In this document: positions 26,348-32,414 of the stretch, piece after piece
Position numbering within the stretch: position 1 is the stretch's first letter
How the letters are laid out: each line of letters opens with the position of its first letter
Assembly (NCBI GenBank): GCA_963613915.1
Contig: CAVEBK010000003.1
Span: 1,702-65,701 of the forward strand
Reading direction: 5' to 3'
Source: an uncultured Collinsella sp.
GTDB taxonomy: Bacteria > Spirochaetota > Spirochaetia > Treponematales > Treponemataceae
Length of the DNA: 64,000 nucleotides
Notes under the pieces: model-generated
Told to the model about the DNA's origin: nothing
Seen by the model: only the letters and a program-made list of their open reading frames with translations
Database searches by the model: none
Position numbers and translations under genes: made by a program

Positions 26348-28069
26348 TTAATTTCCCCAGGACATCATCTGTTCGTCGATTGGTTTTCCAGGAATTGCCA
26401 TCGGGAAAATCATTTCGTCAATATCAACAATCGTATCTACAATGAACGGCTTTTTCTGATCAAAGGCTTCTTTAAAGACTTTTTCAAATTCAGCATTGTT
26501 ACTGGCTTTTAAATAGCCGATTCCGTAAGCGTCGGCAAGTTTGCGCCAGTCTGGTCCAAAATCAAGAGTTGTGTGGCTGTAGCGTTTTTCGTAAAAGAGT
26601 TTCTGCCATACACGAACATTGCCTAAAGTGCCGTTATTAACAAGAACAATAACAATCGGCAGGTTGTAGCGGGCAATCGTACAAAGTTCGTTGCAGTTCA
26701 TGCGGAATGAACCGTCTCCTGCAATATGAACAACGCGTCCGGAAGGATTTGCAATCTGAGCTCCCATTGCAGCCCCGGTTCCGTAGCCCATTGTTCCAAG
26801 TCCGCCGGAAGTAAGGAAGGTTCTCGGCTTTTTAAACGGATAGAACTGAGCTGTCCACATCTGATGTTCACCGACTTCTGTTGTAATAAAAGCGTCGTCG
26901 CCTGCATATTTATTTACAGTTTCGAGCATAAACTTTGGATTTACAGAATCTGCTTTTACAGTATTGTAACTTGCAGGAATTTCTTTTTTCCAGCCTTCAA
27001 TTTTTTCAATCCATTCCGGTCTTTCTTTTTTTTCAATCAGCGGAATAAGTCTTGTAAGGATTGATTTTAAATCACCGACAAGTTCAGCACCAGCAGGAAT
27101 GTTTTTATTGATTTCTGCCGGATCAATGTCAATATGGAATACAGTTGCGTGCTCTGCAAATTTTTTAGGATCTCCGATTACGCGGTCAGAAAAGCGTGAA
27201 CCGAGGGCTAAAACAAGGTCGCTTTCTGTAACTGCCATATTGCTTGCCCTGGTTCCGTGCATTCCAACCATCCAAGTACAAAGAGGATGATCAGCCGGGA
27301 ACACATCGCGGCCCATAAGGCTTTCTGAAACCGGAATCTGTGCTTTTTCTGCAAATTCAAGAAGTTCTTTTTCTGCACCAGAAATTTTAATTCCACCGCC
27401 GGCATAGATTACAGGGCGGACAGATTTATTGATTATTTCTGCTGCTTTTTTAATTTCTTCATCAGAAGGAACTTTTACGGTTACAACGCGCTTAAAGTTT
27501 GAATTTTCTTTTATAAGGGAATCAAGACCACTGTCGCCCTTCTTTAAAGGTTCAAATTCACAGAAAGCGGCAGTAATGTCTTTTGGAATATCGATTAAAA
27601 CAGGGCCTGGTCTTCCTGACTTTGCAATTATAAATGCCTGACGGATTATATCAGCAAGGTCTTCAACCTTTTTTACCATAAAGTTATGTTTTGTAATTGG
27701 AAGGGTAACGCCTGTAATGTCAATTTCCTGGAAGGTATCTTTACCAAGAAGTGGAGTTCCAACATTGCAGGTAATTGCTACGACTGGAACAGAATCCATG
27801 TAAGCGGTTGCAATTCCTGTAACAAGGTTTGTAGCTCCAGGACCTGAAGTTGCCATACAAACGCCTACGCGTCCTGTAGAACGTGCATAACCGTCAGCAG
27901 CGTGGGCTGCGGCCTGTTCGTGTGCAGTAAGAATGTGATTAATGCGGTCAGAATTCCTGTAAAGAGCGTCATAAATATTAAGGATATTTCCACCAGGATA
28001 ACCAAAAACAGTGTCTACACCCTGCTCTACTAAACATTCAATTACAATCTGCGAACCATTAATTTTCAT
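26348..28069 (-). CDS. ilvB: acetolactate synthase large subunit (biosynthetic type)
   Basis: TPP enzyme with N-terminal GVDTVFGYPGG and a GDGSFRMN TPP-binding motif. Confidence 0.9.
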   Translation of the reverse strand: MKINGSQIVIECLVEQGVDTVFGYPGGNILNIYDALYRNSDRINHILTAHEQAAAHAADGYARSTGRVGVCMATSGPGATNLVTGIATAYMDSVPVVAITCNVGTPLLGKDTFQEIDITGVTLPITKHNFMVKKVEDLADIIRQAFIIAKSGRPGPVLIDIPKDITAAFCEFEPLKKGDSGLDSLIKENSNFKRVVTVKVPSDEEIKKAAEIINKSVRPVIYAGGGIKISGAEKELLEFAEKAQIPVSESLMGRDVFPADHPLCTWMVGMHGTRASNMAVTESDLVLALGSRFSDRVIGDPKKFAEHATVFHIDIDPAEINKNIPAGAELVGDLKSILTRLIPLIEKKERPEWIEKIEGWKKEIPASYNTVKADSVNPKFMLETVNKYAGDDAFITTEVGEHQMWTAQFYPFKKPRTFLTSGGLGTMGYGTGAAMGAQIANPSGRVVHIAGDGSFRMNCNELCTIARYNLPIVIVLVNNGTLGNVRVWQKLFYEKRYSHTTLDFGPDWRKLADAYGIGYLKASNNAEFEKVFKEAFDQKKPFIVDTIVDIDEMIFPMAIPGKPIDEQMMSWGN

Positions 28070-28230: not shown

Positions 28231-28285
28231 ATTTTCCGTATTTTGCATATTTTGAATATTTTGCATTTACTGTCATATCTTGCAT
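28231..28285. repeat. 9-bp tandem array (ATTTTGCAT-like, 4 good plus 2 degenerate units)
   Basis: attttccgt attttgcat attttgaat attttgcat ttactgtcat atcttgcat, in the divergent ilvB / yhhQ-like intergenic region. Confidence 0.7.
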
Positions 28286-28400
28286 TTTTTCTTTTAAGAA
28301 TATAGATTCTTTTCTGCGCAGTTTATGATTCCTCATAATTCTCCTGCGCATTATAAATCAAAATTCTTATGGAGGCGGGCGTTATTGCGTCCACACAGTT

Positions 28401-29159
28401 ATGAAAAAACTTTTTAACTTTTTCCGTTCTGAACTCGAAGACTACAAGGTTCTTTTGAGAAACATTCCTTCCCTTACAGTTGCATTTTTTATTATGTCGG
28501 TTGTCTGTGCAAACCTTCTTGCAAACAAGGAACTGGTCAGCTATAAATACCTGGCTCTCGACTGCGGTTTTACATTCAGCTGGATCATGTTTTTGTGCAT
28601 GGATGTTATCTGCAAGCGCTGGGGAACCAAGGCTTCGATCAAAGTTTCGTTTCTGGCTCTTTTTGTAAATCTCTGCCTTACGCTGATTTTTGCACTGCTT
28701 TCTAAAGCTCCTGGAATGTGGGGAGAATTCTACGCAACAGAAAACCCGGAAGTAAACAGAGCCTTAAATGCAACTTTTGGCGGTTCCTGGTATGTTGTTT
28801 TGGGTTCAGCTCTGGCTTCGATTACTTCGTCGGTTGTCAATTCAGTTTTAAACGGAGCAATCGGCAGGATTCAAAAAGGCAACGGATTTCTGGCATTTGC
28901 TGCACGTTCGTACATTTCAACTGCGGTAGGACAGTTTGTAGACAATTTTATCTTTGCTACGGTTGTTTCGAAAATCTTCTTTGGCTGGTCATGGACACAG
29001 GTTGTAATCTGTTCTGCCGTAGGAGCATTTTTTGAACTTTTATGCGAAGTTATTTTCTCCGGCCTGGGCTATAAAATTGTCCGCCAGTGGGAAAAAGAAA
29101 ACGTAGGCAAAGATTATTTTGAATATAAAGCATCTCTAAAGAAAACAGGAACAAGATAA
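28401..29159 (+). CDS. YhhQ/VUT (DUF165) family queuosine-precursor transporter-like membrane protein
   Basis: Polytopic protein. N-terminal ..LTVAFFIMSVVCANLLANK.. and ..GQFVDNFIF.. are typical of YhhQ. Confidence 0.7.
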   Translation: MKKLFNFFRSELEDYKVLLRNIPSLTVAFFIMSVVCANLLANKELVSYKYLALDCGFTFSWIMFLCMDVICKRWGTKASIKVSFLALFVNLCLTLIFALLSKAPGMWGEFYATENPEVNRALNATFGGSWYVVLGSALASITSSVVNSVLNGAIGRIQKGNGFLAFAARSYISTAVGQFVDNFIFATVVSKIFFGWSWTQVVICSAVGAFFELLCEVIFSGLGYKIVRQWEKENVGKDYFEYKASLKKTGTR

Positions 29160-29191: not shown

Positions 29192-29338
29192 GAATTTCAA
29201 TAACCCGCATAAAAAAAACAGCCTCTCGCCAAGAACCTTCTCCAATCCGCACGGTTGCGACAAGCGCAAAGTGCGTTTGGAGAGAGAACCTTGGCTACGG
29301 CTGTTTTTATATTTTTTTGTAAAATAAAATCAAAGTTC
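29192..29338 (+). repeat. MITE-like element, diverged copy A3
   Basis: aaacagcctctcgccaagaacct..ccgcacggttgcgacaagcgcaaagtgcg..gagaaccttggctacggctgttt. Its apical loop is the same as in copy A2. Confidence 0.7.
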
Positions 29339-29378: not shown

Positions 29379-30077
29379 ATGAAAGTTTTAATAACAGGAA
29401 CAAGCCGTGGCATAGGAAGAGCCTGCGCTACTAAATTCCTTGCAGAAAATCACGAAGTTTACGGGCTCGACATTCAGGGCGACACAATTTCTGCAGCAAA
29501 TGACATTCCGGATTCAAAAAATTACACTCATTTTACTGCCGATATTTCAAAAAACTCTTCTTTGCCAGACATTAGCGGAATCGAAATTCTCATAAACAAT
29601 GCAGGAATTCAAACTGCCAGCCTTGAATGCAGCGAAGGCGAAAAAGACATAAACACGAATCTTCTGGGAACAATGAATGTAACAGCAAAATATGCATTCC
29701 AGCCCAAGATAAAATCCGTACTTTTTAACGCTTCTGTTTCTGCCCTCAACGGCAATGAATTTCCTTTCTATGTTGCTTCAAAAGCAGGAATTGTCGGTTA
29801 CATGAAAAACGTTGCCATAAGGCTTGCAAACGAATACAGGGCAACAGCAAATGCAGTGTGCTTTGGCGGCGTTATTACAGAATTAAACGCTCAAGTAATG
29901 GAAGATAAAAAACTGTGGAAAAAAATAATGGACGTTACCCCGTTAAAACGCTGGGCAACAGCTCAGGAAGCCGCAGAATGGATTTACTTTTTAACTGCTG
30001 TAAACAAATTCTGTACAGGACAGGCAATCGATATTTCAGGCGGAGAGAGGAACTGCGCCGATTTATTCGTCTGGTAA
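29379..30077 (+). CDS. SDR family oxidoreductase
   Basis: TGTSRGIG Rossmann motif, NNAG, and catalytic YVASK. Confidence 0.85.
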   Translation: MKVLITGTSRGIGRACATKFLAENHEVYGLDIQGDTISAANDIPDSKNYTHFTADISKNSSLPDISGIEILINNAGIQTASLECSEGEKDINTNLLGTMNVTAKYAFQPKIKSVLFNASVSALNGNEFPFYVASKAGIVGYMKNVAIRLANEYRATANAVCFGGVITELNAQVMEDKKLWKKIMDVTPLKRWATAQEAAEWIYFLTAVNKFCTGQAIDISGGERNCADLFVW

Positions 30078-30114
30078 AAAAACAGAACAGAAATGCAAAG
30101 CCACCAAAGACAAA

Positions 30115-30166
30115 AAGCACCGGTTAAAGAAATTGAATTTTCTGAAAAACCAGTGCTTTTTTTTTG
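30115..30166 (+). terminator. terminator after the SDR gene
   Basis: gcaccggtt..aaccagtgc imperfect stem followed by T9. Confidence 0.5.
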
Positions 30167-30218: not shown

Positions 30219-31100
30219 TTATTGTGTTACAGTAATGTAAGAAATTTCATATCCCGTAACGGAATCATTAAATGAAATTTTTGAGATTTTTCCAGTAATA
30301 TCAACCATAGATTCTTCTTTGTACTCAATAACTTCATCATTGTTTGTATATACAACAATTGTAACAGGTTTTAAATCAGTATCTTTTGGGCTGAAAAGAC
30401 AGCTCAATTTATATGAATATCCTTCAACCTTGCTTTCATCAATGTTAACTACAAGTGCCTTTGTATTAATATCAGAACCTTCAACCGGGTGTTTTTTAAA
30501 CCAGAGTTTAGCTTTTAATTTATTTGCAGAATTCATTGCAACAGCCTGAAGAACAGTCAAATCAGTATAAGCTTTTTTTGCAAAAACTTCGTATTCAGCA
30601 TCAGAAAGTGCAAGAGTTTTTTCGATATCTTCTCCAATCATTTTATTTAATTTGTTTCTGGAAGATACCATAGATTCTGTACGTTCACCAGTTTCAGCTC
30701 CGGAACCGTTTACAGAAACGCTATAAATACTCTTTGCATTAACAGAATAAGTTCCATCTTTTTCAGAAATTTCAATATCCTGAACCTGTTTCTGCATACC
30801 TCCGAGAATCTTCATAAAAAGAATGGATTTTATAGCGTAAACACCACCATCAACATCTGCTTTATAAAGATAAGTGTAACCACTTGTTTTATCATCCGAA
30901 CCATTTCCATTATCAATGATCGCAAAAACAGCAGGAAGCAGTTCTCTTCCCTCAGGAATTGTTCCTGTAACAGCAGTTGAATCACCTGCAAGCTTAGAAA
31001 GATTTTTAGAAAGCGATCCCAATCCCATTGATTTAGCAGAAGCTAAACTAAAACAAGACATAAAAGCAATAGCAGCCATTAAGCCAGCAATTTTTTTCAT
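30219..31100 (-). CDS. secreted protein or lipoprotein of unknown function
   Basis: Signal peptide MKKIAGLMAAIAFMSCFSLASA (possible lipobox Cys16). AGGAG lies 7 nt before the ATG. No family recognised. Confidence 0.7.
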   Translation of the reverse strand: MKKIAGLMAAIAFMSCFSLASAKSMGLGSLSKNLSKLAGDSTAVTGTIPEGRELLPAVFAIIDNGNGSDDKTSGYTYLYKADVDGGVYAIKSILFMKILGGMQKQVQDIEISEKDGTYSVNAKSIYSVSVNGSGAETGERTESMVSSRNKLNKMIGEDIEKTLALSDAEYEVFAKKAYTDLTVLQAVAMNSANKLKAKLWFKKHPVEGSDINTKALVVNIDESKVEGYSYKLSCLFSPKDTDLKPVTIVVYTNNDEVIEYKEESMVDITGKISKISFNDSVTGYEISYITVTQ

Positions 31101-31133
31101 ACAAAACTCCTATGTAAAAAAAATATGGAAGAA

Positions 31134-31162
31134 AGCATACCCCCCCCCCCGTATTATGTCAA
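31134..31162 (-). promoter_or_regulatory. sigma70-type promoter TTGACA-17-TATGCT whose spacer contains a G11 tract
   Basis: Minus strand reads TTGACA taatacGGGGGGGGGGG TATGCT. It sits 33 nt upstream of the ATG of the 30219..31100 gene. Confidence 0.6.
31140..31150 (-). repeat. homopolymeric G11 (C11 on the plus strand)
   Basis: Direct read: ..catac cccccccccc g.. This is the only long G/C homopolymer I noticed in the window. Confidence 0.95.
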
Positions 31163-31242: not shown

Positions 31243-31274
31243 AAAAAAAAGACCGGAACACCCCGGTCTTTTTT
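31243..31274. terminator. bidirectional terminator downstream of the MsmX-like ATPase gene
   Basis: A8-gaccgg-aacacc-ccggtc-T6. Confidence 0.7.
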
Positions 31275-31295: not shown

Positions 31296-32414
31296 TTACC
31301 ATTCTTTTTTGATTTCTGGTTCACAGATGTTAACTTCTGTATCCAGATCAAAGAATTTTGAACGATCCATTTTTGGAGTAAGGTTGATAGTGTCTCCAAG
31401 CTGTGGATTTACAACAGGGTCACACTTTGCAACGATGCTTACATTCTGAACCTGTACAAATACGTGAGTTTCTGCACCAAGTGGTTCTTTGTTTGTAACT
31501 TTTACAGCCATGTTGTTCTGTGCTGCCGGAGATTCATGATATTCAAGATCTTCTGGGCGAACACCAAACCAAACCTGTTTTCCAACATAAGCCTTAAGAT
31601 GTTTCTGCTGTTCTGCAGTTGGAACAAGTGTAAATGAACCTTCGTTAGCAATAACGCCTTCACCGCTGGCTTCGATTGTTACTTTAAAGAAGTTCATTGG
31701 AGGAGTTCCGATAAATCCGGCAACAAATTTGTTGATCGGGTGATTGTAAAGATACAGAGGTTCTCCAATCTGCTGAATGCGTTTTTCTGACATTACAACG
31801 ATTTTTGTACCCATTGTCATGGCTTCGATCTGGTCGTGTGTAACGTAGATCATTGTAGCCTTAAGACGATGATGAAGGTCAGAAATTTCTGCACGCATTG
31901 AAACGCGGAGTTTAGCGTCAAGGTTAGAAAGAGGTTCATCGAAAAGGAATACTTTTGGAGAACGAACAATAGCACGGCCAACTGCAACGCGCTGTCTCTG
32001 TCCACCGGAAAGAGCCTTTGGCTTACGTGTAAGATAGTTATCAAGGTCAAGGATTCTTGAAGCTTCGCGAACGCGGCGATCAATTTCTGCCTTGTCAGTT
32101 TTACGGATTTTAAGACCAAATGCCATGTTATCGTAAACAGTCATGTGCGGATACAAAGCATAGTTCTGGAATACCATTGCAATATTGCGGTCTTTTGGCG
32201 GAATGTCGTTCATAAGTTCACCGTCAATGTAAAGTTCACCGCCGGTAATGTCTTCGAGACCTGCAATCATACGAAGTGTTGTAGATTTACCACAACCAGA
32301 TGGTCCTACAAATACACAGAATTCTCCGTGTTCAATTGTTACATTTGATTTTTCAACAGCGAGAACATCACCGTCGTAAACCTTTGTAACCTCTTTAAGT
32401 TCAACCTTTGCCAT
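31296..32414 (-). CDS. sugar ABC transporter ATP-binding protein (MalK/MsmX/UgpC type), stand-alone
   Basis: GPSGCGKST, LSGGQRQR and a C-terminal TOBE-like regulatory domain. No permease genes are adjacent. Confidence 0.9.
   Translation of the reverse strand: MAKVELKEVTKVYDGDVLAVEKSNVTIEHGEFCVFVGPSGCGKSTTLRMIAGLEDITGGELYIDGELMNDIPPKDRNIAMVFQNYALYPHMTVYDNMAFGLKIRKTDKAEIDRRVREASRILDLDNYLTRKPKALSGGQRQRVAVGRAIVRSPKVFLFDEPLSNLDAKLRVSMRAEISDLHHRLKATMIYVTHDQIEAMTMGTKIVVMSEKRIQQIGEPLYLYNHPINKFVAGFIGTPPMNFFKVTIEASGEGVIANEGSFTLVPTAEQQKHLKAYVGKQVWFGVRPEDLEYHESPAAQNNMAVKVTNKEPLGAETHVFVQVQNVSIVAKCDPVVNPQLGDTINLTPKMDRSKFFDLDTEVNICEPEIKKEW

Follow-up and report, generated by a model that had tools for sequence, protein, structure and literature searches.

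A poly-G promoter spacer of variable length, a candidate phase-variation switch, ahead of an orphan secreted-protein gene family of gut treponemes

What could a run of eleven G residues be doing in front of a single gene in the AT-rich DNA of a gut treponeme? Homopolymer contingency loci are textbook material for pathogens of mucosal surfaces, among them Neisseria, Campylobacter, Helicobacter and Treponema pallidum; to our knowledge they are little documented in commensal gut spirochetes. The window (by which we mean the whole stretch of 64,000 nucleotides analysed here, 41% G+C) carries a C11 run on the plus strand at 31140-31150, which the sequence-only reading had picked out as its only long G/C homopolymer. 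It proved to be the only run of G or C of at least six bases in the 64,000. Base composition leads one to expect about 8 G/C runs of at least six bases in 64 kb, and 0.003 runs of at least eleven; by this simple measure, the G11 tract is thus far beyond chance.

On the minus strand (31162..31134), the tract is part of a predicted promoter, TTGACA-taatac-G11-TATGCT. The -35 hexamer, TTGACA (31157..31162), matches the consensus perfectly and is invariant in all 4 of the tract-bearing lineages described below. It is followed by a short non-repeat part of the spacer, taatac (31151..31156), which varies by lineage (aattgcc, aaacact and aaagttcgat elsewhere), and then by the G11 homopolymer (31140..31150), the variable element in the comparison within the species, which directly abuts the -10 hexamer, TATGCT (31134..31139). 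The latter agrees with the consensus at 4 of 6 positions and has the form TAnnnT in all lineages. Hexamers, the 17-nt spacer and the G11 within it are all as the sequence-only reading had given them. This site ranks first in a consensus promoter scan of the region, with 10 of 12 matches; the sole other upstream candidate overlaps the start codon, and the scan found nothing promoter-like between the upstream terminator and the G tract. Judging from these features, the predicted sigma-70 promoter with its poly-G spacer would be the only plausible one for the gene, and it is presumably the one used.

From the geometry of the promoter, transcription would start at about 31125..31129, some 7 nt past the -10 hexamer. 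A Shine-Dalgarno sequence, AGGAG (31107..31111, minus strand), conserved in clades 1-3, stands 6 nt ahead of the ATG at 31100; the motif had been recognised before, with a gap of 7 nt that has to be corrected. The open reading frame runs from this ATG to 30219 on the minus strand; its product is a secreted protein of 293 aa, the length originally read, from a Treponema family that is uncharacterised. A bidirectional intrinsic terminator at 31243..31274 (A6, GACCGG-ggtgtt-CCGGTC, T8; dG -21.5 kcal/mol, z -6.1) ends the upstream ABC-ATPase gene (31296..32414, minus strand) and, in agreement with the first description of the locus, insulates the 293-aa gene from it. Past the gene, folding identifies another terminator hairpin (30112..30161), common to the convergent SDR gene. 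As terminators stand on both sides, the 293-aa gene is a self-contained, monocistronic transcription unit.

If the tract is a switch, its length should not be the same in all strains. We compared contigs of the same species, defined as those whose protein is identical or 98% identical to that of the window (98-100%), with aligned stretches 96-100% identical (L001, L002 and so on are labels of compared loci, and P0004, P0008 and so on of homologous proteins). Tract lengths, here and in the lineages below, are those of the assembly consensus, to which Illumina error at G8-G11 could add plus or minus one base, chiefly at low coverage (L008 and L028, about 4x); read in this way, the lengths in the species are G11 in the window and in L005 (spacer 17 nt), G10 in L002, L003 and L006 (16 nt), G9 in L007 (15 nt) and A+G8 in L039 (15 nt), with at least G10 in L004, whose contig begins inside the tract. 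The same-species tracts are thus G8-G11 with spacers of 15-17 nt, aside from L001, which has GGA+G10 and a spacer of 19 nt, unlike the 15-17 nt series. L005 is identical to the window across 2,248 bp. L006, over 1,404 bp, departs from it by 3 substitutions and one indel, and the indel is the tract. Length therefore differs between strains with the flanks kept, as it does in promoters of the porA/TP0126 type. Invariance across strains had been named beforehand as evidence against a switch; instead, the tract ranges from G8 to G11 both in this species and in T. succinifaciens.

One contig of the same 90% cluster stands apart. L038 1-60, at the start of a contig of GCA_963629635.1, has a wholly different sequence upstream of AGGAG, with only a G5 and with neither TTGACA nor poly-G. 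This contig begins 60 nt ahead of the ATG, and the difference could reflect a promoter replacement or a chimeric contig end. Other polymorphism was seen farther off in the window at 29210-29295, between a Vut_1-family gene (28401-29159, plus strand) and the SDR gene (29379-30077, plus strand), where the window has about 54 extra bases that are missing in the near-identical L002, L003 and L004. At this spot, which is polymorphic for indels, L001 is without a 19-nt piece, and the gene calls of some MAGs include a 41-aa ORF. On the other side of the Vut_1 transporter gene (28401, plus strand), in the divergent intergenic region that it shares with the acetolactate synthase large-subunit gene (26348-28069, minus strand), about 6.6 imperfect tandem copies of the 9-mer ATTTTGCAT occupy 28231-28290 and may be a candidate regulator-binding array.

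The arrangement extends well beyond the species. TTGACA, then 6-10 nt, then a poly-G abutting TAnnnT, stands ahead of homologues 33-49% identical in three other lineages. The promoter of T. succinifaciens (about 48% protein identity) reads TTGACA-(a)a(t)ttgcc-Gn-TAGTGT, with G8 in 9 loci, G9 in 6, G10 in 1 and G11 in 1, and spacers of 15-18 nt. That of the P0008 lineage (42% identity) is TTGACA-aaacact-G9-TAAAGT, with a spacer of 16 nt, and that of the P0014 lineage (33% identity) is TTGACA-aaagttcgat-Gn-TATAAT, with G9 in 4 loci and G10 in 2, and spacers of 19-20 nt. From lineage to lineage, the neighbour genes, the -10 sequence and the non-repeat bases of the spacer change (the T. succinifaciens homologue occupies another locus, with a tRNA and an S66 peptidase gene for neighbours), whereas TTGACA and the poly-G abutting TAnnnT stay; the distance from the -10 to the ATG is 33-34 nt in three lineages. 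The homopolymer thus lies in the spacer between -35 and -10, as in the porA/TP0126 type, the hexamers being predicted ones and the layout being the same in the homologous promoters. G/C runs of at least six bases in the Treponema loci examined were the homologous promoter tracts and nothing else, bar the four G/C 6-mers of the Gallitreponema locus L012, the only other such runs among these loci; the loci of the P0014 lineage agree with this. Occupation of the same promoter position in four lineages at 33-49% identity would be hard to explain otherwise, and therefore suggests that the tract itself is selected.

Pairs of near-identical T. succinifaciens haplotypes were compared over about 1.7 kb: L008 (G10) and L009 (G9) are separated by 0 substitutions, L033 (G9) and L037 (G8) by 4, and L036 (G8) and L015 (G9) by 6. 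The pairs that differ in length fall in two sublineages about 120 substitutions apart, so the tract must have changed in length repeatedly and on short time scales. L036 and L015 are moreover deep assemblies (183x and 29x, respectively), and their disagreement argues against pure consensus noise. Assemblies also tend to stop at the tract. Long contigs of 7-9 kb (L002, L003 and L010) end within about 50 nt of it, L002 and L003 at 9-38 nt, and the shorter contigs L004 and L045 begin in the tract or 11 nt ahead of it; such breaks are expected if reads disagree in length there.

Not all relatives have the tract. The P0009-P0011/P0013 lineage (about 36% identity) is without it and has upstream, in L023 1572-2000 and L026 825-1511, a divergent Xre-type HTH gene and CTCTAAATTTAGAG, a perfect palindrome. 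The neighbours in this tract-less lineage include TrbI, BrnA antitoxin, Cas2-like and SocA genes, a mobile-element-like context. This suggests that regulator-based control on a mobile element may take the place of the homopolymer switch in this lineage. The more distant relatives (27-37% identity, partial matches) are likewise without a tract.

Other peculiarities were met among loci of the T. succinifaciens type. In L025 1560-2520 (MAG GCA_030540405.1), the gene has in-frame stops or a frameshift, its -10 is deleted, and the tract is interrupted (GCAGGCGAGGGGGA); the copy may be a pseudogene in decay whose switch is dead, or else the assembly may be an error-prone one. The ORFs of P0004 and P0006 were extended upstream by gene callers, and P0006 begins with MLDKLPGGGSVL.., a read-through of the promoter poly-G. 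The tract is thus a cause of false N-terminal extensions in public protein sets. The tRNA-adjoining locus is also a variable region (L008 4319-6882 versus L028 3270-4912): downstream of the gene, some strains have an inserted block of a ParA/CbiA-like ATPase gene and three unknown genes, and other strains have Xre-HTH, HU, S6 and SSB genes at that spot.

What is the protein whose expression would be switched? Its N-terminus consists of MKK, a hydrophobic stretch and ..SA|KS, resembling a signal peptidase I substrate; the signal peptide comprises residues 1-22, with predicted cleavage at ASA|KS, and an SPase-I-like ..[SF]A|K[SG] site is conserved among homologues. A signal peptide had been read from the start, together with a possible lipobox cysteine. 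The former stands, and the lipoprotein reading was rejected, as Cys16 is absent or displaced in homologues and no lipobox is conserved. From these sequence features, the product is probably a secreted, periplasmic or surface protein, and we assign it no function.

That the protein belongs to no recognisable family had also been stated, and this held in every collection searched. Neither Pfam nor NCBIfam gave a match for the 293-aa protein, nor did Pfam give a domain, or NCBIfam a match, in any of the 55 relatives scanned; PHROGs gave matches for the protein only at E > 0.04, and sequence-profile comparison with the PDB gave no significant match (E > 0.1). A structure prediction, as the sequence-only reading had proposed, yielded a confident AlphaFold model (pLDDT 82, pTM 0.77), in which the N-terminal 37 residues are disordered and sheet-helix-sheet elements follow; when the PDB was searched with it by Foldseek, the helix-grip domains of DUF4468, BamC and a TBP-like protein were matched weakly and in part only (E >= 2e-3, query TM <= 0.28), with DUF4468 4e6f at the top (E = 2e-3, TM 0.28/0.44). 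It is because the fold matches are only weak and partial that no function is assigned. A word-indexed homology search returned 12 relatives by single sequence and 15 by profile, all gut-metagenomic and labelled uncultured Treponema or Spirochaetales. The biggest cluster, of 420 members, stands at about 48% identity to the protein of the window, and some of its RefSeq entries bear the name Treponema succinifaciens. When 1.84 billion cluster representatives were searched exhaustively by profile, 112 relatives came up at E < 1e-3, of which 39 reached E < 1e-30; most have 260-310 aa. A scan of a genome collection gave only two distant relatives, both without the tract, and the viral contigs of IMG/VR, searched as a check on phage origin, held no relatives.

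We consider it likely that the poly-G is a phase-variable promoter switch of the slipped-strand contingency type, acting on transcription. Such a switch had been offered as a candidate by the sequence-only reading; length polymorphism among strains and conserved placement in the promoter now support it, and its functional steps are proposed as follows. The poly-G would take up the larger part of the spacer that separates the two boxes of the sigma-70 promoter, and slipped-strand mispairing during replication would add or remove one G. Gain or loss of a G would set the spacer to 15, 16 or 17 nt and so on, and would alter the rotational register of the two boxes, so that RNA polymerase binding and transcription of the secreted-protein gene would go up or down. 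It is well established that a one-base change in the -35/-10 spacer alters the strength of a sigma-70 promoter, whatever else binds. The G11 allele of the window, whose 17 nt are the canonical optimum, is predicted to be the high-expression state. The effect of length on expression, the use of the promoter and a fast, reversible switching within populations are the parts of this model that we infer. Most of the observed spacers miss the optimum: two lineages have 15-16 nt, and the P0014 lineage has 19-20 nt. Either expression of the gene is low or off most of the time, or else the optimum or the box assignment departs from the E. coli rule; a majority in the low or off state is common for contingency genes.

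Could the tract be conserved for another reason than switching? It might be a static promoter element, either a regulator site or a rigid G-rich spacer, whose lengths reflect neutral drift and noise. Conservation over 33-49% protein identity would fit a binding site as well, and the T. pallidum tpr promoters do pair poly-G with a CRP-like regulator (PMC7864442); the length data, besides, come from consensus sequences. However, the effect of spacer length on sigma-70 strength would persist with a bound regulator too, as porA and TP0126 illustrate, and haplotypes 0-6 substitutions apart differ in length in several lineages, with high-coverage assemblies (L036 and L015, above) among those that disagree. 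These genomes, moreover, otherwise purge G/C runs, and the keeping of a mutable one suggests that mutability is tolerated or selected. A static element thus seems to us rather unlikely. We find it more improbable that the gene is phase-variable by a route other than -35/-10 spacing, that is, with different true boxes and a tract acting as in opc, tprL or Bordetella pertussis fim, through box overlap, a changed distance to an activator site or an effect on the open complex. Such a route would accommodate spacers that are not centred on 17 nt, such as the 15-16 nt of T. succinifaciens and the 19-20 nt that separate perfect boxes in the P0014 lineage. It does not account well for the presence, in each of the four lineages, of a perfect TTGACA on one side of the tract and of a TAnnnT immediately next to it on the other, nor for the interval of 33-34 nt between the -10 and the ATG in three of them.

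The tract may also be imagined to act in the RNA. If transcription began farther upstream, the transcript would include G11, which would base-pair with the CU-rich CUUUCUUCC, followed by U8, in an attenuator- or terminator-like leader hairpin. This we hold to be very unlikely, even though a terminator scan flags 31150..31127 with its T run and the fold reaches -11.4 kcal/mol (z = -2.1): the hairpin depends on G-U pairs, has no counterpart in the other lineages (z = -0.1, +0.7 and +1.4) and no match in Rfam, and the stretch from which it would have to be transcribed is the one in which the promoter scan finds no site. An artefact of sequencing or assembly, such as the poly-G of two-colour chemistry, had also been named as something that would refute the original proposal. 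Contigs often break at the tract, and homopolymer lengths are error-prone; yet the tract recurs, with the same flanks on both sides, in over 30 independent assemblies made by different projects and assemblers, its position is conserved across lineages, and contigs of up to 466 kb, with coverage of up to 183x, have it in their interior. An artefact is hence barely credible and, as to the existence of the tract, which recurs inside long and deep contigs of many projects, it is refuted.

The promoter switch that we favour has close counterparts. For porA, van der Ende et al. reportedly observed in 1995 that G11, G10 and G9, corresponding to 17, 16 and 15 nt, go with high, medium and no expression; this series is the same as in the species of the window. 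The porA system differs in belonging to another phylum and in that PorA, a pathogen's porin and antigen, is well characterised, whereas the protein studied here is uncharacterised. In the meningococcus, gain or loss of a G in the poly-G spacer between the -35 and -10 of porA changes transcription (PMC3899988; PMC7864442). Within the genus Treponema itself, the -35 and -10 of the gene for the OmpW homologue TP0126 of T. pallidum are separated by a poly-G spacer, and expression is best when this spacer has 17 nt (Giacani et al. 2015, as summarised in PMC7864442). TP0126 is like our locus in having the poly-G between sigma-70 boxes upstream of a gene for an envelope protein with a signal peptide, and in a tract length that varies within and between strains. 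The two also differ: T. pallidum has 52.8% G+C and many poly-G tracts, as opposed to 41% and a single G/C run in 64 kb, and the gut protein is unrelated, without known fold family, with a putative switch that is conserved over several species and lineages. Homopolymer-dependent promoter modulation of envelope protein genes is a feature shared with tprE/G/J and tprL of T. pallidum and with the poly-C of N. meningitidis opc as well. The tracts of tprE/G/J are inside the promoters of these genes and allow transcription at 8 G's or fewer, and in tprL and opc the mechanism is other than spacing between boxes.

The putative mechanism, being of the porA/TP0126 type, is thus already known. What is new is the host group, commensal AT-rich gut treponemes, the orphan protein family, and the retention of the arrangement in four lineages down to 33% identity; new too is the regulator-linked alternative arrangement in a fifth lineage. 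In the literature, we found no paper linking T. succinifaciens, a 'vanishing' species of the human gut, with a phase-variable locus of its own. For metagenomics, the tract explains the recurrent contig breaks and the mis-called N-terminal extensions at this locus. T. pallidum has been described as not genetically alterable (PMC7864442, 2021), and the gut treponemes would offer a cultivable organism in which to study treponemal poly-G switching, in place of that experimentally difficult species.

Conservation of the switch on one orphan secreted protein points to fluctuating selection, by immunity, phage or niche. One might speculate further that the poly-G switch is an ancient and actively maintained feature of the whole treponemal secreted-protein family, retained with the gene down to 33% identity and through relocation to different genomic sites, and replaced in one lineage by an Xre-type regulator. 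We put this wider reading forward tentatively, as possible rather than probable. If it is true, the protein, on the envelope or secreted, would be one of the main targets that host IgA or phage meet in commensal gut treponemes, T. succinifaciens included, and its expression would be stochastic.
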